A stretch of DNA of 64,000 bases from Candidatus Nealsonbacteria bacterium (GCA_011050465.1 DRFQ01000001.1:114860-178859); one strand, 5' to 3'. Counted from the first letter of the stretch, positions 2,263 to 59,443 are shown. The notes: generated by a model not told the origin, from the letters alone. A program made the numbers and translations.

Positions 2263-3342
2263 ATGAATAACGATTTAATTGAAATTGACGGATCTATTGG
2301 TGAAGCTGGCGGCCAAATATTAAGGACAGCTGTGGCTTTGGCGGCAGTAACTAAAAAACCCTGCCATGTATTTAATATTCGAGAGGGCAGGCCAAAGCCG
2401 GGGTTAGCAACCCAACATCTTTTGGGAATTCAGGCCTTAGCTCGGCTCTGTGATGGAAAATTAGAAGGAGATTATCTGGGTTCAGAAGAAATTAAATTCT
2501 ATCCAGGTGAAGTTTACAGAGGCCGGGCCTCTGTTAATATTACTACTGCAGGAAGTATAGCTTTGGTTTTGCAAGCTTTAATTTTGCCGGCTTTGTTCGC
2601 CCCAGAACCAATTAAAATTTATTTTGACGGTGGATCTACCGACACCTTTTTCTCTCCAACCATTGACCATTTCCGCTATGTATTTTTAAAAATCTTAGAA
2701 AAGATGGGGATGAAAATAGAGATAAATATAATCAGACGAGGTTTTTATCCTGAAGGTGGTGCAAAAGTTGAAGTTATAGTTCATCCCCTCCTTCGGCAAG
2801 CCCGCCTGCCGGCGAGGCAGGGTTCCGGCGGGCAGGCCTCTAAACTAAACAGTGTGAATTTAATTGAAAGAGGTAAGCTTAAAAAAATTACAGTAACTTC
2901 AGGCGCTTCAGAATTTTTACAAGACAAAAAGGTAGCTGAAAGGCAATTAGCTGGAGTAAAAGAAATTTTAGGAAAATTAAAATTGTCCCTTGAAGAAAAA
3001 ATTGAATATTATCAAACTTCCTGTCCGGGAAGCCAAATCTGCTTAATTGCTGAATTTAAAAATACAGTCATTGGGACTGATAATTTGGGGAAATTAGGGA
3101 AAAGAGCTGAAGATGTCGGCAAAGAAGCTGCTTTAGAATTATTAAAAGAACAAAAATCTGAAGCTTGTTTAGATAAACATTTAGCCGACCAAATTTTACC
3201 CTATATGGCTCTTGCCAAAGGCAAATCCCAAGTAACCGTCTCAGAAATAACCGATCACTGCAAAGCCAACATCTGGGTAATTGAAAAATTCATTGATGGA
3301 AAGTTTAAGATAGATGGTAATTTAATATCTTGGAGTCCATAA
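2263..3342 (+). CDS. rtcA: RNA 3'-terminal phosphate cyclase
   Basis: 359 aa; N-terminal 'IEIDGSIGEAGGQILRTAVALAAV' RtcA signature. Confidence 0.8.
   Translation: MNNDLIEIDGSIGEAGGQILRTAVALAAVTKKPCHVFNIREGRPKPGLATQHLLGIQALARLCDGKLEGDYLGSEEIKFYPGEVYRGRASVNITTAGSIALVLQALILPALFAPEPIKIYFDGGSTDTFFSPTIDHFRYVFLKILEKMGMKIEINIIRRGFYPEGGAKVEVIVHPLLRQARLPARQGSGGQASKLNSVNLIERGKLKKITVTSGASEFLQDKKVAERQLAGVKEILGKLKLSLEEKIEYYQTSCPGSQICLIAEFKNTVIGTDNLGKLGKRAEDVGKEAALELLKEQKSEACLDKHLADQILPYMALAKGKSQVTVSEITDHCKANIWVIEKFIDGKFKIDGNLISWSP
2785..2840. repeat. GC-rich palindromic mini-insertion in frame within rtcA
   Basis: About 56 bp at roughly 75% GC inside an AT-rich gene. Near-palindrome gcccgcctgccgg / ccggcgggcaggc. 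Encodes 'LLRQARLPARQGSGGQAS', an extra loop relative to typical RtcA. Confidence 0.45.
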
Positions 3343-16540: not shown

Positions 16541-16640
16541 CCTCACCCCCCGACCCCCGTGTTAGACACCTTCGGTTTCTAACGTTTTCGCCCCTCGCTT
16601 CACTCGGAGCGAAGGCCTGTTTTTCCACCACGGGGTGAGT
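16541..16640. repeat. GC-rich element with CTCACCCC / GGGGTGAG terminal inverted repeat
   Basis: cctcaccccccgacccccgtgttagacacc...ttctaac...ttttccaccacggggtgag; closely related to 25993-26106 (shared ccccgacccc, ttagacacc, ttctaac, ttttccNccacgggg). Overlaps the 3' end of the DUF763-like gene. Confidence 0.45.
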
Positions 16641-17790
16641 TAGTTAGTCTTTTTAAGGCATTGATTTTTTCTTTTGGGTTTACCTTGCTTCTTTTAATTC
16701 CTTTTTCCATGATTTCAAGGGTTCTATCGTAAATATCTCTCTCAATAAAATAGGGCGTGCCGTCTTTGCCGCCATGAGCAAAAGAATACCTGGCTGGATC
16801 ATCATAAGAGGGTCTTGCCCCATAAATGATTTCAGCAACCAAAGAGAGGGCCCTTATGGTTCTTGGACCGACTCCTTTTATTGATAAAAGCTCTTCGAAA
16901 CTTTGAGGATCTTGTTCTGTTGCAAGAAATATTGATTTTTTCAATCTTTTTAAATCAAATTTTTCCTGCAGTACCGGATGCCAATGAAATTCAATATTAT
17001 TTAATTCCATCTCAGTAAAATTACTTAACCTTCTTTTCTTCATGAAAGAATTTGATTTACTTAAAACACTTTTAAGGTCTTTAAAGAATCTCTTTGGTTC
17101 TTCTTTGACCAGGCTGGCGCTAATTTTTCGATTCTCATCACTCTCTTTAGCTGTAAGATTCAGCGGCTTAACTTTGACATCAGAAATAATTCCAGAATGA
17201 GGTTCTTCAATAAAATTATACTCTGAGCCTGCTAAAGGATCTTTAATGTTAGAAGATAACCAATGGTAACGTCTGGCCCGAGAAAGCTGTTCTGACATCC
17301 CTTGTTGGACCACTGCCCACTGACCGGATTTTGTAAAGATTAAATTGTGGTGGTAAAGCTGGAAACCATCTTGAAGAGCAGTATTGTCTACTTTAGCTGA
17401 CATTTTGGAAGCATACACTAATTCATCTATTTTCTCCAAAGGAAAGCCTAAAAACTCACCCCAATCCTGAATTTGCTCTGGAGTTTTTCTCGAAGTTTTT
17501 CCTTTACCACCACAGATAAAAAGGCCAAGCTCATTTTCTAACCCCCGAAGGCCCTCTTTTAAAGCTCCCATAGTAATTGTGGTTAAACCACTACTATTCC
17601 AATCAAAACCCAAAACACAGCCTAAGCTCTGGAACCAAACGGGATCAGACAGTCTTTTTAATAACTCTTCTGACCCGAATTCTTCAACAATGGCTAAGGC
17701 TATTCCCCGTCCTAACGTACGCATTCTTTCAAAAAGCCAAGGAGGACATCTTCCGTAATCCAATGGAACCGTGGCAATTCCTGTTCTCAT
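16600..17790 (-). CDS. DUF763-like protein with C-terminal helix-hairpin-helix
   Basis: 396 aa; N-terminal 'MRTGIATVPLDYGRCPPWLF' recalled as DUF763-like; 'LLSIKGVGPRTIRAL' HhH. Confidence 0.45.
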   Translation of the reverse strand: MRTGIATVPLDYGRCPPWLFERMRTLGRGIALAIVEEFGSEELLKRLSDPVWFQSLGCVLGFDWNSSGLTTITMGALKEGLRGLENELGLFICGGKGKTSRKTPEQIQDWGEFLGFPLEKIDELVYASKMSAKVDNTALQDGFQLYHHNLIFTKSGQWAVVQQGMSEQLSRARRYHWLSSNIKDPLAGSEYNFIEEPHSGIISDVKVKPLNLTAKESDENRKISASLVKEEPKRFFKDLKSVLSKSNSFMKKRRLSNFTEMELNNIEFHWHPVLQEKFDLKRLKKSIFLATEQDPQSFEELLSIKGVGPRTIRALSLVAEIIYGARPSYDDPARYSFAHGGKDGTPYFIERDIYDRTLEIMEKGIKRSKVNPKEKINALKRLTNSPRGGKTGLRSE

Positions 17791-17848: not shown

Positions 17849-17876
17849 AAAAAATCTGGTTCTTCAACCAGATTTT
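17849..17876 (-). terminator. Intrinsic terminator downstream of rtcB
   Basis: aaaaatctggttcttcaaccagattttt: perfect 10-bp stem, 4-nt loop, flanking T/A runs. Confidence 0.6.
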
Positions 17877-18082
17877 TAATTTGTTTTTTCTTTGTTCTCG
17901 GTGGATATGTTTAGAAACTTTTGATACAACTCATTTATTAATTCTTCCTGTTTTTTCAAACTTAAGACACTCCGGCGAATCCGGGCCTTTTCTCTGCGAA
18001 TAAATTTCCTGAGACTTTTTGGAAGTTTTTTTTGTTTCATAAATAAAAAAGTGATTTAACAATGTAGCAATTTAACAATTTT

Positions 18083-19528
18083 TTATTCTCCTTTAATTAC
18101 GGCTAAAGGTACAAGTCTGGCTACTTTTTTAGACAAACCTGCCCGATGAACCACCTCAACAACATTATCGATGTCCTTATAGGCCTGAGGGGCCTCTTCG
18201 GCAATACCCCTCAAACTCCAACATTTAATTAATATCCCCTTATTCTTTAATTCTTGAATTAACTGCTGAGGATTAACTCTTCTAACTGCCTCTCTTCGGG
18301 ACATAGTTCTACCTGCGCCGTGGCAAGTACTAAACCAAGCTTCTTCCCCTTTCTGGGTTCCTACTAAAATGTAAGAGGCAGTACCCATAGAGCCTGGAAT
18401 TATAACTGGTTGTCCGGTTTCTCGATATTTTTCTGGGATTTCTGGGTGGCCCGACGGAAAAGCTCTGGTTGCCCCTTTTCGATGAACACAAACCTCTATT
18501 TCTTTTTCATTAATCTTATATTTCTCAATTTTAGCAATATTATGAGCAACATCATATAAAACAGTTAAAGATAAAGCTTTTTCCCCTAAAACCGATTTCC
18601 AGGCCTTTCTAATATAATGAGTAATCATCTGACGATTAGCCCAGGCGTAATTTGCCCCGCAAGCCATAGCTGAAAAATATCTCTGGCCTTCGCTTGATTT
18701 CAAGGGACAGGCAGCCAGCTCGCGATCGGGAAGATCTATTTGATATTTGGGCATGGCTTGCATCATCAACCTGATATAATCTGTGGCTATCTGATGACCA
18801 AGACCCCTAGAACCTGTATGAATCATAATAACTACTTGGTCTTGAACTAAGCCGAAATCTTCAGATATTTTTCCATCAAAAATTTCATCAACTTTCTGAA
18901 TTTCTAGAAAATGATTACCAGAGCCTAAGGTCCCCACTTGGTCTCTCCCTCGGTTCTTGGCCCTATCAGAAACCATTGAAGGATCGGCCTGTTGCAATTT
19001 CCCTTCGGTTTCACAATTTTCAATATCTTCTTTTTCGCCATACCCTTGCTCAACTAATCTTTGAGCGCCTCCTTCTAAAATTTTATTCAGAGAAGAAAAA
19101 TCGATTTTTATTTGTCTCCCCTGACCTAATCCCGAAGGAACTTCTTTTTGAATTTCAGTTGCTAAGTTTTCTAAATAAGGTTTAATATCTTTCTCTGAAT
19201 AATCAGATTTTAAAAGTCTCATTCCGCAATTAATATCATAACCTACCCCTCCTGGCGAAATTACCCCGTCTGAAAGACGGGTAGCAGCTATCCCTCCGAT
19301 CGGAAAACCATAACCCTCATGCATGTCAGGCATTGCCATGCTGTATTTTACAATGCCAGGCAGGGTGGCAATATTGACTAACTGCCCAAGCGACCTATCT
19401 TTAAATGACTCTTCTAACATCTTTTCTGAAACATAAGCTCTGGCCGGAACCTTCATATCTGACCGAAAACTCTTTGGGATCTCCCATAAATAATCATGGA
19501 TTTTTATAAAATCTTTTTTCTGAAGCAT
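18083..19528 (-). CDS. rtcB: RNA-splicing ligase RtcB
   Basis: 481 aa; 'DINCGMRL', 'GSGNHFLEIQ', 'HTGSRGLGHQ', 'CHGAGR' RtcB active-site motifs. Confidence 0.9.
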   Translation of the reverse strand: MLQKKDFIKIHDYLWEIPKSFRSDMKVPARAYVSEKMLEESFKDRSLGQLVNIATLPGIVKYSMAMPDMHEGYGFPIGGIAATRLSDGVISPGGVGYDINCGMRLLKSDYSEKDIKPYLENLATEIQKEVPSGLGQGRQIKIDFSSLNKILEGGAQRLVEQGYGEKEDIENCETEGKLQQADPSMVSDRAKNRGRDQVGTLGSGNHFLEIQKVDEIFDGKISEDFGLVQDQVVIMIHTGSRGLGHQIATDYIRLMMQAMPKYQIDLPDRELAACPLKSSEGQRYFSAMACGANYAWANRQMITHYIRKAWKSVLGEKALSLTVLYDVAHNIAKIEKYKINEKEIEVCVHRKGATRAFPSGHPEIPEKYRETGQPVIIPGSMGTASYILVGTQKGEEAWFSTCHGAGRTMSRREAVRRVNPQQLIQELKNKGILIKCWSLRGIAEEAPQAYKDIDNVVEVVHRAGLSKKVARLVPLAVIKGE

Positions 19529-19794
19529 ATTTTGATATACCCTGTTATTTTACTCGATTTCTTTAAAAATGAAAAGCCCCAAAGTAGAACAAAGTTCACT
19601 TCGGGACTAGTCCCGCACCGAGATTTGCTCTGGTGAGGGGGCCGTGAAAACACGGCAACATTTGGCTAAAATAGTCTATTGAATTTATTGGAGCATTTTT
19701 TCGCTTTTCTTAATTCTGCTTTAATTTTCTTTAAAACTTCCGCAATAAACTCTTTTCTGTTTTCAGTTTTTTGAAGATCAACGAAGTTCATATG

Positions 19795-20035
19795 TCAAAA
19801 AGTCGCTCGCTCTCCTCCAGTCTTCTCGCCTCGTCTTCGCCTCGGTGAAGCGGGCGACTGGCGCCATTCGGTCTTCGGGCTCACTCCTTAGAAACCCTCG
19901 GCACTTCGTCCTGAGCCCTTCGGCAGTGAGCTCAGGACGAATCTGCTCAGTATCGAAGGATTTCTGGCGTTTCTGCCTCAACGGCAGAAGCCTGTTTTTT
20001 TTCACCCCCCCCACCTTTCGAGGTGTTGACAATGT
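19795..20035. repeat. Composite GC-rich repeat region (GTCCTGAGC hairpin family)
   Basis: Perfect 12-bp inverted repeat ttcgtcctgagc/gctcaggacgaa, plus gtatcgaaggatttct and aagcctgtttttttt blocks shared with 26020-26060, 3420-3470, 40560-40600 and 16600-16640. The 84-aa ORF predicted across it is considered spurious. Confidence 0.4.
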
Positions 20036-20140
20036 AAATGTCTAAAGAATAATAAATTACGTAGAATAATTTACGAAAGGTGAGGGGGCAAGCGGGGAGA
20101 TACCCAATCTCCCCGACTCTTTCTGTATCTTTTTGACATT

Positions 20141-21916
20141 TTAAATGTCAAAAAGTACTGTTGCTTCCCAGGTGTCGTCTGTTCTCTGACGGATATTTAA
20201 GTCATGGTGGGTCACGGCCTTAATGTCTTCGCCAAAGTTTTTAACTTTTTGGCCAAAAAGTTCTCCTTCAAGATTAGCTTGCCCTGAACCCATTGAAGGG
20301 CTATCTGAAAATTTTCGGAATTTAACACTCGAATAAACCTCTTTATTGACCTGGTTTAAATAAAGAATTTCACTCAAGAAGTCGACCAGGAGGGCCGACA
20401 AATCAAGGGAGGTTATTTTAATTTCTCTGCTTATTTTTTGTTCAGATTTTCCAATCTTTGGCTTCATACTTTCTTCCATACCCGAGAGAGCGTTGGAAAA
20501 TAACTCTTTCTTAGTTGAGCCAAAAGCTTTAATTTTTAAATCTGCTTTATGCTCAAGTATTTCGTATTTTTTCCATAAATTCAGGTTTTGAAATTCTTCT
20601 CTAACAATTTTTTTATCATCCCAAGGAATTTTTTTTCCGCCAGCTACACATATCCAGGGCTCTGATCCCTTTCCGGTAATAATCAACTTGTCTCCAGGCT
20701 CTGCAAATTTCAAAGCCACCCTAATTGCCTCTTTTCTATCGAGAATTCTATGAAGCGGAACAGATATGTCTTCGTCTGCGGCAGCTCCTTCAACGCCATT
20801 GGCTACCTCCTCGATAATCTTCATTGGGTCTTCATCGTAAGGGTCCTCATTGGTGATAAAAATTCGATCACAATGTTGAGAAGCCAATTTTCCTAAAATC
20901 GGTCTTTTCCACTTATCTCTACCTCCTCCTGCCGCACCCAAAACACAAATCATTTTAGAATCGGACTTGTTAAGTTCTGGCCCCAGTTTCTTTATGGTTT
21001 TATAAACTTTTTCCAAGGCAGCAGGAGTAAAAGCGTAGTCAACAAAAACTTTGAAGGGTTTGGAAATTACAAGTTCCATTCTCCCTGGAATTCCCTCAAT
21101 TTCTTCCAGGGCTGATTTACAAATCTCTAGAGAAATAGCCTGAGATAAACCGACACATATTGCTGCTAGGGCATTATATATATTAAATTCACCGAGTAGA
21201 TTGAGCTTAAACTGGGTTTTCTCGATCCAAAAAGTAATTCCCTCTCTTTCTAGCATCCAAAAATAATTAGTGGCTCGTACTTGTTTATAGACTAACTCAT
21301 CATTTTCTTCATCTGCTGGCTGCCAGCTACCCGTTCCTAAGCCGTAACCATATTTTTCATCGGCTGGGAAATTTAAAAAATAACCAGCTGCTTCGTCATC
21401 CAAATTAACGATGCTGATTCTTCTGCCTTTTAGGGATTGAAATAATTTTCCTTTCGCTTCTTTGTATTTTTCAAAAGAGCCATGGGCTTCGATATGTTCC
21501 GGGGTTAAATTAGTAAATACGGATATATCAAAATTGATGAATTTGTGTCGATATTGTTTTATCCCCTCGGATGTTACTTCTAAAATTGCGTACTGGCACC
21601 CAGAATCTAAAGCCTTTCTTAAGAATTTTTGCAGTTGAAAACGACCGGGCATGGTTTGTTTCAAAAGATTCGACCATTCTTTCTCTCTAATTTTAAATTT
21701 AATAGACGACAGAGAAGCTATTTTATATCCTGCTTTTTCGAAAATTTTAGTTATTAGCTCTATTACCGTTGACTTTCCGTTAGTCCCGGTAACTCCAACA
21801 ACTTTTAAGCTTTTTGACGGAAACCGGTACAAAATAGCACCGCAAAAAGCTAAGAAAAAATGGTACCAACTGACTAAAAACGAAGGGATGAGTTTTTTGG
21901 CAATATTCTTTATCAT
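20141..21916 (-). CDS. Mur-ligase-family enzyme (N-terminal TM; MurE/MurF/PgsB-like) translationally fused to a C-terminal archease domain
   Basis: 591 aa; 'GVTGTNGKST' P-loop, 'TNLTPEHIEAHGS', 'DYAFTP' Mur ligase motifs in residues about 1-440. Residues about 450-591 'YEILEHKADLKIKAFGSTKKELFSNA...EDIKAVTHHDLNIRQ...WEATVLFDI' match the archease signature. No stop codon and no ATG separate the two parts. Confidence 0.7.
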   Translation of the reverse strand: MIKNIAKKLIPSFLVSWYHFFLAFCGAILYRFPSKSLKVVGVTGTNGKSTVIELITKIFEKAGYKIASLSSIKFKIREKEWSNLLKQTMPGRFQLQKFLRKALDSGCQYAILEVTSEGIKQYRHKFINFDISVFTNLTPEHIEAHGSFEKYKEAKGKLFQSLKGRRISIVNLDDEAAGYFLNFPADEKYGYGLGTGSWQPADEENDELVYKQVRATNYFWMLEREGITFWIEKTQFKLNLLGEFNIYNALAAICVGLSQAISLEICKSALEEIEGIPGRMELVISKPFKVFVDYAFTPAALEKVYKTIKKLGPELNKSDSKMICVLGAAGGGRDKWKRPILGKLASQHCDRIFITNEDPYDEDPMKIIEEVANGVEGAAADEDISVPLHRILDRKEAIRVALKFAEPGDKLIITGKGSEPWICVAGGKKIPWDDKKIVREEFQNLNLWKKYEILEHKADLKIKAFGSTKKELFSNALSGMEESMKPKIGKSEQKISREIKITSLDLSALLVDFLSEILYLNQVNKEVYSSVKFRKFSDSPSMGSGQANLEGELFGQKVKNFGEDIKAVTHHDLNIRQRTDDTWEATVLFDI

Positions 21917-22797
21917 TAAATTTGCCGGTCAATTGCTTCTGAAATTAATTTTAAATCTACCATTAATGTCTTAAATCCGAAGAAACTTAAAGATTGAGGA
22001 CCATCAGATAGGGCTTTTTCGGGTTGAGGATGGATTTCAATTAAAAGACCATCTGCTCCAGCAGCTACGGCTCCCTTAGCTAAAGAGGGAACAAATTCTC
22101 TCTGGCCGGCTGGATGGCTTGGATCGACAATAATAGGTAGGTGACTTATTTTTTTTACTACGGCGATTGAGCTTATATCAAGGGTAAATCTAGTTGAGGT
22201 TTCAAAGGTTCTTATCCCTCTTTCACATAAAAGAACCCGGGAATTACCCTCTTTTAGAATATATTCAGCTGCTGCCAACCATTCTTCAATAGTGGCCGCC
22301 AAGCCTCTCTTTAAAACTACTGGTTTTCGGCTTTTGCCTACCGACTTAAGTAAAGAGTAATTCTGCATATTTCTGGCACCAATTTGTAAAATATCTGCAT
22401 ATTTTGCCACCAGAGAAACATTTTCTGGTTTTAAAACCTCGGTAATTGTCAAAAGGCCTGTTTCTTTTCCTACCGAAGCTAAAATTTTCAACCCTTTTTC
22501 TTCTAAGCCCTGGAAGCTATAAGGAGAGGTTCTGGGTTTAAAAGCCCCTCCTCGCAATATTTTTCCACCTAATTTTTTTACTAGTCTTCCACAAGCTAAA
22601 AGTTGTTGTTTATTTTCAATAGCACAGGGACCGGCCATAATAATAATATCTTTTCCGCCAACCTTTAAGTCGCCTATTTTAATAATAGTTTTTCCTTGTT
22701 GAGTTGTTCGGCTAGCTAATTTATAGGGCTTATTTGCCATTTTGATTTTCTCACCTTTGAATTTACCACAATTTGCCAAAGAAAAAAAGCCGGACAA
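21916..22797 (-). CDS. 3-deoxy-7-phosphoheptulonate (DAHP) synthase, class I-beta (AroG/KdsA superfamily)
   Basis: 'LRGGAFKPRTSPYSFQG', 'ILQIGARNMQN', 'IVDPSHPAG' match Thermotoga-type DAHP synthase. The true start is probably the internal ATG at 22740 (MANKPYK...). Confidence 0.7.
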   Translation of the reverse strand: MSGFFSLANCGKFKGEKIKMANKPYKLASRTTQQGKTIIKIGDLKVGGKDIIIMAGPCAIENKQQLLACGRLVKKLGGKILRGGAFKPRTSPYSFQGLEEKGLKILASVGKETGLLTITEVLKPENVSLVAKYADILQIGARNMQNYSLLKSVGKSRKPVVLKRGLAATIEEWLAAAEYILKEGNSRVLLCERGIRTFETSTRFTLDISSIAVVKKISHLPIIVDPSHPAGQREFVPSLAKGAVAAGADGLLIEIHPQPEKALSDGPQSLSFFGFKTLMVDLKLISEAIDRQI

Positions 22798-25992: not shown

Positions 25993-26106
25993 CGATTTCC
26001 CCCGACCCCTCTCTTTTAGACACCCACGGCACTTCGTCCTGAGCTCAGTGTCGAAGGATTTCTAACTCTCACTCACTCCGTTCGTTTTCCTCCACGGGGG
26101 AAATCG
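25993..26106. repeat. GC-rich element with CGATTTCCCCCG / CGGGGGAAATCG terminal inverted repeat
   Basis: 12-bp perfect TIR; interior ccccgacccctctcttttagacacc...cttcgtcctgagctcagtgtcgaaggatttctaac... homologous to 16541-16640 and to the 19897-19960 hairpin. Confidence 0.45.
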
Positions 26107-28459: not shown

Positions 28460-28464
28460 CTCTT

Positions 28465-28510
28465 AAATTGCTAAACTGTTAAATTGTCAAATTGTTAAAC
28501 TGGGAATAAT
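28465..28510. promoter_or_regulatory. Array of 8-bp WAAWTGTT direct repeats upstream of mutM
   Basis: cttaaattgctaaactgttaaattgtcaaattgttaaactg: five consecutive units. The same unit recurs at 43330-43410, 49440-49480, 59370-59410 and 18050-18080. Confidence 0.3.
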
Positions 28511-28552
28511 AAAATTTCTTTTATCGACAAAACAATTTAATAATGTGGCCAT

Positions 28553-42604: not shown

Positions 42605-43336
42605 ATGTCAGGCCATTCGCATTGGAAAAGTATAAAACACAAAAAAGGGATCGCCGACAAGGCGAAAAGTAAGGTTTTCTCGAAGCTTTCTCAGGCAATC
42701 TCGATTGCGGTCCAAGAAAAAGGGCCAGATCCAGAAACAAATTCTAAATTAAGGTTAGCTATAGAAACGGCGCGTTCTTTTAGTTTACCGAGAGATACTA
42801 TTGAACGTGCGATCAAAAAAGGAAGCGGCGAGCTTGAGGGAAAAAAATTAGAACCGATAACCTTTGAAGCTTATGGCCCCGGCGGAATCGCTATTATCGT
42901 CGAGAGTATTACCGATAATAAAAACCGTACTGTAAACGAAATTAAGCAAATTCTAAATCAGAACAACGGGAAACTTGCCGATGCTGGCGCGGTAAAGTGG
43001 CTCTTTGAAAGGAGAGGAATCATCACCCTACGAATTACGAATCAGTACGAATATACAAATAAAGAAGATCTAGAATTAAAAGTGATTGAGGCGGGGGCCG
43101 AAGATATTACTTGGAATAATAACGCCCTGAATATTTACACAAAAATTGAAGATTTCGATAAGGTTAAAAAAAACCTTGAAAGTCAGGAAATCAAGATAGA
43201 ATCCGCCTCTCTGGACTGGGTGGCTAAAGAGAATGTCCAGACCGCGCAAAAATACAAAGAAGCAACTGAAAAATTATTTGCGGCCTTAGACGAATCAGAT
43301 AGCGTTCAAGAAATATATTCAAACCTTAAAGTTTAA
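42605..43336 (+). CDS. yebC: YebC/PmpR-family transcriptional regulator
   Basis: 243 aa; 'MSGHSHWKSIKHKKG' N-terminus and three-domain YebC architecture; contains the 32-nt TACGAAT repeat in frame. Confidence 0.85.
   Translation: MSGHSHWKSIKHKKGIADKAKSKVFSKLSQAISIAVQEKGPDPETNSKLRLAIETARSFSLPRDTIERAIKKGSGELEGKKLEPITFEAYGPGGIAIIVESITDNKNRTVNEIKQILNQNNGKLADAGAVKWLFERRGIITLRITNQYEYTNKEDLELKVIEAGAEDITWNNNALNIYTKIEDFDKVKKNLESQEIKIESASLDWVAKENVQTAQKYKEATEKLFAALDESDSVQEIYSNLKV
43024..43055. repeat. TACGAAT-repeat segment inserted in frame in yebC
   Basis: accctacgaattacgaatcagtacgaatatac is identical over 32 nt to intergenic 58678-58709. Encodes 'TLRITNQYEYT', an extra loop relative to typical YebC. 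Confidence 0.5.
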
Positions 43337-43410
43337 TTGTTAAACTGTTACATTGTTATAGTGACTTCAATTGAACAATGTGACAATATAACAATGTAGT
43401 AATGTAATAA
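43330..43410. promoter_or_regulatory. Inverted array of 8-bp WAAWTGTT units upstream of ruvC
   Basis: aattgttaaactgttacattgttatagtgacttcaattgaacaatgtgacaatataacaatgtagtaatgtaataatgg; contains the 11-bp inverted repeat acattgttata / tataacaatgt. Confidence 0.3.
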
Positions 43411-43955
43411 TGGTAATATTAGGTATTGATCCCGGAACGGCTAAAGTGGGATATGGAGTGATTAGAAAAATCCAAAACCCACCGAACCGAACGAAGTTCG
43501 GGACTCCCCGTAGGGTTGCATCTAAAACTCAATATGGATTAAAATGTTTGAGTTATGGATTAATTCAAACTAGTTCTTCTTCGCCTCCGGCTGAGCGTTT
43601 AAAAAAAATAAGCCAAGAGTTGGGCCAGTTAATAAATAAATACCGGCCAGAGATTTTGGCCGTTGAAAATGTTTATTTCTTTAGAAACTTAAAAACTGCT
43701 CTACCCGTTTCTCAGGCTAAAGGGGTAATTTTACTCGCTGCCGCTAATCACAATATTCCGGTTTACGAATTTACTCCTTCACAGGTAAAAATGGCGGTGG
43801 TGGGATACGGTCGGGCCGAAAAAAGACAAGTCCAAGAAATGGTTAAAATCTTACTTAATTTAAAAGAGCTGCCCCGTTCAGATGACGCAGCAGACGCACT
43901 TGCGATAGCAATCTGTTACACGATTTCCCCTCAAGAACAATATCTTGCGAAGTAA
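43410..43955 (+). CDS. ruvC: Crossover junction endodeoxyribonuclease RuvC with an in-frame insert of about 20 aa
   Basis: 181 aa; 'ILGIDPGTAKVGYGVI', 'AVENVYFF', 'AKGVILLAAA', 'DAADALAIAICY'. Insert 'QNPPNRTKFGTPRRVASKTQYG' is encoded by the GC-rich stretch 43468-43510. Confidence 0.85.
   Translation: MVILGIDPGTAKVGYGVIRKIQNPPNRTKFGTPRRVASKTQYGLKCLSYGLIQTSSSSPPAERLKKISQELGQLINKYRPEILAVENVYFFRNLKTALPVSQAKGVILLAAANHNIPVYEFTPSQVKMAVVGYGRAEKRQVQEMVKILLNLKELPRSDDAADALAIAICYTISPQEQYLAK
43468..43510. repeat. GC-rich palindromic mini-insertion in frame within ruvC
   Basis: cccaccgaaccgaacgaagttcgggactccccgtagggttgc: palindrome ccgaacgaagttcgg plus the CCCCGTAGGG motif that matches the MITE TIR. 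Confidence 0.4.
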
Positions 43956-49375: not shown

Positions 49376-49483
49376 ATTGACATACCGTCACATTATTGCA
49401 TTATTCAATTAGTTTTATTGAGCAAAGAAATTTCGTTATTTTTAGTGCAACAGTTTACCAATTTAACAGTTTAACAATTTATT

Positions 49484-59366: not shown

Positions 59367-59443
59367 AAAACTACATTGTTACATTGTCAAATTGCCACAT
59401 TGTTAAATCGAAAATTTCTGATTGGTAAATTGAATTAGAGAAT

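Follow-up and report, generated by a model that had tools for sequence, protein, structure and literature searches.

Archease (PF01951) has been described as a stand-alone protein whose gene lies upstream of rtcB, in the same orientation, in the archease-rtcB "tRNA splicing operon" of Pyrococcus horikoshii and Thermus thermophilus (Desai et al. 2014, 2015; PMC3973293, PMC4604427). When human RTCB is in complex with archease, a third Mn ion, Mn(C), is coordinated by D51, D178, and the terminal carboxylate of I179, and K156 of archease binds phosphate; the D51A and K156A substitutions abolish RTCB guanylylation (PMC10944509). MurE-type proteins, for their part, are represented by the canonical enzymes (Escherichia coli 1e8c, Staphylococcus aureus 4c13, Thermotoga maritima 4bub), by a MurE-MurF fusion (8f5d), and by plant PAP11 (8r5o, 8w9z), a MurE homologue co-opted into an RNA-related complex, the plastid RNA polymerase. 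Here, we analyzed a stretch of 64,000 nucleotides (nt) from Candidatus Nealsonbacteria bacterium (Patescibacteria; GCA_011050465.1, DRFQ01000001.1:114860-178859; hereafter the window), in which a single gene encodes a 591-amino acid (aa) protein made of a short MurE-type ligase and a C-terminal archease.

The archease of the window resembles that of the tRNA splicing operon in its PF01951 domain, its metal- and phosphate-binding residues, its DI-COOH end, and the position of rtcB downstream in the same orientation. In contrast, it forms the C-terminal domain of a 591-aa protein and has no separate start codon, and the DNA between it and rtcB contains a GC-rich spacer and a decayed DUF362 gene. 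Likewise, the ligase half shares with canonical MurE the ATPase middle domain, the C-terminal domain, the P-loop, and K155, but it lacks domain 1, carries NEDPY in place of DNPR, scores below the NF001126 cutoff, and is followed by archease. Although the MurE-MurF fusion shows that MurE-type proteins tolerate fusion, it joins consecutive steps of one pathway and contains neither archease nor RtcB, and PAP11 is a eukaryotic structural subunit that also lacks both. Our literature search found no paper on archease together with MurE or a Mur ligase fusion, and we regard the protein as a new domain architecture built of known kinds of protein.

A single reading frame joins a MurE-type ligase to archease

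The fused gene comprises the following parts.

20141..21916, minus strand: murE::archease fused open reading frame (ORF), 591 aa plus stop, in a single frame with three Pfam domains
20582..21916, minus strand: MurE module, residues 1-445, with the middle and C-terminal Mur ligase domains and without the uridine diphosphate (UDP)-binding domain 1
20573..20581, minus strand: junction codons AAT TTA TGG (N446 L447 W448), by comparison with the unfused locus L009
20141..20572, minus strand: archease module, residues 449-591 plus stop, a full-length PF01951 that aligns to P. horikoshii archease 4n2p

More specifically, Pfam places Mur_ligase_M at residues 42-255 (2.2e-43), Mur_ligase_C at residues 278-417 (2.7e-20), and Archease at residues 451-591, the last covering profile positions 1-136 of 136 (1.5e-30; 106.8 bits versus a cutoff of 25). 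We looked for a stop codon between the MurE and archease halves and found none; the peptide that spans the junction is NLNLWKKYEILEH. The proposal of the initial annotation, i.e., one polypeptide in which a Mur ligase with the P-loop GVTGTNGKST (residues 41-50) precedes an archease, is therefore upheld by the single frame and the three domain matches.

A homopolymer adjoins the junction (ATGGAAAAAATAC), where an out-of-frame ATG is followed by six A's (AAT TTA TGG AAA AAA TAC), and with one base fewer this ATG would open a typical archease start, MEKYEILEH. Such a context could mean that a spurious 1-nt indel beside the A6 run, introduced by sequencing or assembly, has joined two separate genes. 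Against this stands the independent recovery of the same protein: it is identical in three GenBank records (HDZ54220.1, HEB46236.1, and KKN97094.1; three contigs, the longest of 385 kb), and a 98%-identical variant occurs on 14 further contigs in Logan. Furthermore, the in-frame LW junction is common to the fused proteins P0001-P0003, and P0002 and P0003 (78% and 71% identical to the window protein, respectively) encode it with different DNA; in the fused locus L090, the junction reads TTG TGG, so that the out-of-frame ATG is already gone. Between the window and L090, the ratio of nonsynonymous to synonymous substitution rates (dN/dS) was well below 1 in both halves (MurE, 0.072; archease, 0.13); purifying selection has therefore acted on both since they were fused. 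An artefact can be regarded as effectively excluded, and the 591-aa gene is real and intact, a genuine in-frame fusion of two neighboring genes. A search of homologous genomes, as the initial annotation had advised, yielded 17 fused homologues of 49-98% identity from independent datasets (JGI, ENA, NCBI, and Logan).

The names that these proteins bear in databases are automatic, either "archease" or "UDP-N-acetylmuramyl-tripeptide synthetase," and cover one half each; for annotators, this means that each current name hides the other half of the protein.

Adjacent genes merged by simple mutations, and did so repeatedly

In the unfused relatives L007, L008, L009, and L095, murE, archease, and rtcB are separate, adjacent, and co-oriented, and the murE-archease boundary consists of a 14-nt overlap (L007), a 17-nt gap (L008), an ATGA overlap (L009), or a 35-nt gap (L095). 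The L009 boundary reads AAATTTATGAAAGG, in which murE ends N-L-stop and archease begins M-K-G within the ATGA overlap, whereas the window junction reads GAATTTATGGAAAAAATAC (NLWKKY), with TGG in place of the TGA that ends murE in the unfused relatives. Compared with the ATGA overlap, the window has one extra base, so that TGA is read as TGG and archease enters the murE frame. The ATG at 20574-20576, now out of frame, resembles a vestige of the archease start codon. A second route is seen in the fused locus L093, which has lost about 44 nt (stop plus spacer) relative to its unfused sister L095 (90.7% identity in MurE) and keeps the archease Met in frame.

We scanned GTDB species representatives and considered the best 80 loci, which are labeled as Patescibacteria lineages or unclassified bacteria, except for one record titled Gammaproteobacteria. 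Adjacent unfused murE-archease(-rtcB) genes were present in 12 of the 80, and in three of those 12 (L010, L041, and L083) murE and archease share a frame and no further ORF intervenes; in L041, all that divides them is one stop codon. No fused locus was found among these 80 representatives, including the 12 with adjacent genes, nor was a close relative of the window species, the best match being 62% identical. Judged from the gene orders compared here, the ancestral order is murE, archease, rtcB, with the murE stop and the archease start overlapping or nearly touching. These fusions document how overlapping stop and start codons in compact genomes become multi-domain proteins, by a 1-nt indel, by deletion of a spacer, or by loss of a single stop.

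A neighbor-joining tree built on the MurE portion scatters the fused proteins over about 10 positions interspersed with unfused ones. Because the tree carries no support values, this number of fusion events is approximate; at least three of them can be called independent with confidence. For P0005 and P0007, the closest unfused protein is 90% identical, while the closest fused proteins outside their group reach 77-79%. From the conserved IPWDD motif to the start of archease, the linkers span 14-37 residues and are not homologous to one another. The fusion has also been inherited by descent in two groups, namely, the window protein with P0001-P0003, and P0011, P0012, P0021, P0023, and P0025 (65-75% mutual identity). 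The suggestion that the fusion is recent therefore does not hold for the window lineage, in which it is old enough to be common to relatives at 70-78% identity. A library of representatives at 50% identity was uninformative for counting fusions: it contained two MurE-archease representatives among those listed, a low number that is probably due to clustering of fused proteins with unfused MurE. A word search aimed at archease alone listed almost only stand-alone archeases and none of the fused proteins.

We also considered whether a free archease is still made, by internal initiation or by proteolysis of the linker, so that the fusion would be only apparent at the protein level. In the fused loci L001, L091, and L093, the original ATG survives in frame as a Met before the archease start (KEYE, KKYE, and KYE), and the window has an in-frame TTG at residue 411 that is preceded, at a distance of 6 nt, by a GGAG. 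This GGAG, at residues 408-409, is explained by the conserved protein motif PGD, however, and the start codons speak against free archease in several ways. Following up a non-ATG start, which the initial annotation had raised, we found no in-frame ATG, GTG, or TTG from residue 412 to residue 479 of the fused ORF, which rules out an internal canonical archease start in the window. The relic ATG is out of frame, runs into a stop after seven codons, and is lost in the sister locus L090, and the fused loci L003, L005, and L092 have no junction Met. We thus regard production of free archease as highly improbable in this genome.

The archease half retains the residues and the free C-terminus required for RtcB activation

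The archease half aligns end to end with 4n2p (residues 2-143; 6e-15). D459, in the motif EHKAD, is the counterpart of human D51 and is D in all 18 fused sequences; K566, in DIKAVT, is the counterpart of human K156 and is conserved in all fused rows but the truncated P0003 (17 of 18). The fused protein ends in LFDI followed by the stop, and so places D590 and the free carboxylate of I591 at the positions of human D178 and I179; all complete fused homologues end in FDI or FDV. Human archease has about 40 additional N-terminal residues, so an extension on this side is tolerated. Conversely, archease needs a free C-terminus, which accounts for its position at the C-terminal end of the fusion, and no long archease-containing protein found in the representative search extends beyond its archease domain. 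Because archease does not likewise depend on a free N-terminus, the fusion is tolerated. As the C-terminal domain of an unrelated large enzyme, archease can work, or is at least maintained by purifying selection; this agrees with the structural evidence, in which the C-terminus alone has to be free.

Other archease fusions occur in the representative library, i.e., LigT/2H-phosphoesterase-archease proteins (P0358 and P0371) and a PDDEXK_3 nuclease-archease protein (P0243). As in the window, archease is their C-terminal domain and ends at the final residue, which fits the need for a free carboxylate. Unlike MurE, however, their partners are RNA- or nucleic acid-processing enzymes with an obvious functional link to RtcB.

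The presumed target of the archease half is encoded downstream:

18083..19528, minus strand: rtcB (RNA 3'-phosphate/2',3'-cyclic-phosphate ligase), 481 aa, without intein; PF01139, 593 bits, profile positions 1-426 of 426

The claim that rtcB lies directly downstream was correct as to its side and orientation, but the gene does not abut the fusion and starts 612 nt away. In all eight fused loci examined (the window, L001, L003, L005, L090, L091, L092, and L094), rtcB is downstream in the same orientation, separated from the fusion by 0-2 inserted genes, which encode DUF362, a Zn-ribbon protein, or PhoU plus PHO4. A separate rtcA, annotated previously at 2263..3342 on the plus strand, was confirmed. 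As a side observation, rtcB of the unfused relative L009 (10943-13684) holds an intein and encodes 913 aa.

The ligase half is a MurE without the UDP-binding domain

The ligase half scores 346.8 bits against the NCBIfam profile TIGR01085 murE (cutoff, 257.3) over profile positions 71-469 of 472, and its PDB alignments begin at query residue 19, which corresponds to residue 85-92 of solved bacterial MurEs (90 in E. coli 1e8c). Its upstream neighbor is as follows.

21916..22797, minus strand: DAHP-synthase-family gene, whose stop overlaps the fusion ATG by one base (TAATG)

Owing to this overlap, the short N-terminus is fixed and has no upstream extension. Since the matches start at profile position 71 and the ORF cannot be extended, the ligase half is without the N-terminal UDP-binding domain 1 of about 85-90 residues and does not have the three-domain MurE architecture. 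Mur-family enzymes that act on non-UDP substrates, such as MurT, FolC, and cyanophycin synthetase, typically have no domain 1.

Nine putative catalytic positions (K48, E113, H141, K155, N245, R279, D293, R333, and D334) are invariant across 22 aligned sequences. K155 is the likely counterpart of the carbamylated lysine, as we infer from the conserved motif around it rather than from a residue-level alignment. The DNPR motif of MurE selects meso-diaminopimelate (meso-DAP). At residues 356-360, NEDPY replaces the DNPR of DAP-type MurE and is invariant in the clade except for one P359S, and the ligase half falls below the cutoff of the meso-DAP-adding equivalog (NF001126; 343.7 bits versus 373). 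For these two reasons, meso-DAP specificity is not assignable to the ligase half.

An AlphaFold2 model of the fusion, built from a 148-sequence alignment, had a mean predicted local distance difference test score (pLDDT) of 91 and a predicted template modeling score (pTM) of 0.83. Its best Foldseek matches in the PDB are MurE enzymes (S. aureus 4c13, root mean square deviation [rmsd] 2.8 Å), with rmsd values of 2.8-3.7 Å over about 430 columns for canonical MurEs. The ligase half had also been called PgsB-like and membrane-anchored, and neither description is retained. It passes the TIGR01085 cutoff, its best PDB matches by both sequence and fold are MurE, and no PgsB/CapB family appears among its best 25 NCBIfam matches, by which a PgsB/CapB identity was rejected. 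As for a membrane anchor, part of the hydrophobic N-terminus (residues 19-35) is homologous to a stretch found ahead of the P-loop in soluble MurE proteins, e.g., plant PAP11. A transmembrane anchor was rejected, given that the best 19-residue Kyte-Doolittle mean (1.53) is borderline and equal to that of the internal ligase segment 248-266; the model shows residues 12-29 as a helix (block-mean pLDDT, 90-96).

A search for a second Mur ligase or a dcw cluster returned exactly one Mur ligase match in the window and one in each fetched locus. The MurE without domain 1 and with NEDPY occurs clade-wide, in the window (20582-21916, minus strand) and in more than 576 GTDB loci; such a widespread Patescibacteria MurE, with no UDP-binding domain and an altered specificity motif, merits biochemical attention. 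Separately, P0014 (898 aa), which we had considered as a candidate MurE-RtcB fusion, proved to be a tandem double short MurE with two Mur_ligase_M and two Mur_ligase_C domains, and indicates that the short MurE has been duplicated in some Patescibacteria.

Function of the fused protein

We favor, with a probability of roughly 0.75, the explanation that the protein is a bifunctional fusion of neighboring genes that is selectively maintained and involves no chemical coupling, the MurE half ligating an amino acid and the archease half activating RtcB. Both halves keep their catalytic residues across the fused proteins. The architecture, its conservation, mutational origin, and recurrence, and the purifying selection on the two halves are established by the analysis; both activities are probably retained, and probably without any chemistry that couples them. 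One extra base merged a short murE with archease, and each half most likely keeps its own job. The N-terminal 445 residues would act as an ATP-dependent amino acid ligase, and the C-terminal 143 residues would bind RtcB and contribute the third metal site (D459, D590, and the I591 carboxylate), which, with K566 as the phosphate-binding lysine, would promote RtcB guanylylation. The archease half is predicted to stimulate both guanylylation and multiple turnover of RtcB, for which the downstream rtcB in 8/8 fused loci and the archease dN/dS of 0.13 provide indirect support.

Several observations weigh against this explanation. The pTM of 0.83 hints at a fixed arrangement of the domains, and both the persistence of murE-rtcB linkage without a nearby archease, in seven GTDB loci, and the many recurrences of the fusion could mean a functional link. 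In addition, the fused state is uncommon, as it occurs in none of the 12 GTDB representatives whose genes are adjacent.

A functional link would imply that the short MurE-like ligase, archease, and RtcB belong to one pathway or complex, of which the fusion is a Rosetta-stone signal; for instance, the ligase could use a non-UDP substrate connected with RNA repair, archease could also assist this ATP-dependent ligase, or the fusion could recruit RtcB to MurE. Consistent with such coupling, archease and/or rtcB lies downstream of murE in about 22 of the 80 GTDB species loci, and in four loci (L013, L021, L024, and L050) rtcB starts 2-26 nt after murE with no archease between or nearby. The approximately 10 independent fusions, the ligase without a UDP-binding domain 1 and with NEDPY for DNPR, the model pTM, and the precedent of PAP11 as a structural subunit of RNA polymerase point in the same direction. 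However, about 58 of the 80 murE orthologues have neither archease nor rtcB nearby, and fusion is a minority state even where the genes are adjacent. Passive tethering would predict linkers without a fixed length or sequence, which is what the fused proteins show. Where gene ends overlap or abut, the simplest possible mutations have produced the fusions. The ligase scores above the curated cutoff of the murE subfamily, and, to our knowledge, no chemistry links Mur ligases with archease. Functional coupling is thus unlikely. The coupled or moonlighting function that the initial annotation had envisaged gives way to a simpler account, because the gene order of relatives indicates repeated merger of adjacent genes by trivial mutations, which explains the fusion without coupling.

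It is very unlikely, in our estimate, that the three proteins form a functional module peculiar to Paceibacteria-type Patescibacteria in which repeated fusion reflects selection for physical coupling. Such a module may take the form of RtcB activation tethered to a ligase with a non-UDP substrate, or of archease aiding the nucleotide or metal handling of the Mur ligase. If true, coupling with RtcB would link cell-envelope or peptide ligation to RNA repair or splicing.

Genes and repeats around the fusion

The interval between the fusion and rtcB, and the region beyond rtcB, contain the following features.

19792..20140, minus strand: noncoding spacer after the fusion gene, homologous to L009 9707-10053
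19666..19791, minus strand: DUF362 remnant, 41 codons, truncated, identified by alignment to the 5' end of the L009 DUF362 gene
17876..18040, minus strand: small basic ORF, 54 aa, directly 3' of rtcB, with the motif LPKSLRKFIRREKARIRREVL.LKEQE.LINELYQKF
16600..17790, minus strand: DUF763 gene, PF05559, 422.8 bits, the last gene examined in the same-strand string

DUF362 is intact (267-279 aa) between archease and rtcB in L001, L009, and L090, and is therefore decaying in the window lineage. The spacer at 19792-20140 has a conserved hairpin directly after the fusion stop and a GC-rich segment with strong hairpins; its GC content is 51-59%, versus about 37% elsewhere, and its fold z-scores are -2.6 for the plus strand and -3.5 for the minus strand. 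In the 612-nt fusion-rtcB interval, Rfam reported nothing at gathering thresholds and chance-level matches only (E up to 10). The plus strand of the spacer also carries a terminator-like hairpin with a T-run (19969-20001) and an 11/12 match to a sigma-70-like promoter (20026-20053). The spacer may encode an unknown small RNA or represent a mobile insert of high GC content.

A GC-rich palindromic element, TTAGAAACCCTCGGCACTTCGTCCTGAGC...GCTCAGGACGAA, is present in two copies of 92-93% identity, one in the archease-rtcB spacer (19888-19941) and the other downstream of uvrB (26016-26057); it looks like a dispersed REP-like hairpin.

The motif LPKSLRKFIRREKARIRREVL.LKEQE.LINELYQKF of the small basic ORF recurs in eight of nine aligned loci, in ORFs of 50-60 aa that are very basic. 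The counterparts in relatives are as follows.

L001 12307-12483: small basic ORF
L005 11194-11364: small basic ORF
L007 11381-11566: small basic ORF
L009 13854-14024: small basic ORF
L090 10348-10521: small basic ORF
L003 11759-11908: small basic ORF
L091 9361-9549: small basic ORF

This ORF has no Pfam match and could encode an RtcB-associated or RNA-binding small protein. The DUF763 gene occupies the same position in L001, L009, and L090, and a search of the literature on DUF763 returned nothing relevant.

Finally, AT-rich intergenic repeats with units such as ATTGTTAAACTGTTACATTGT occur in direct and inverted copies at 18053-18079, 28464-28538, 43323-43424, 49407-49481, and 59370-59419, one of them between rtcB and the small basic ORF, and may constitute a regulatory or promoter-associated motif.

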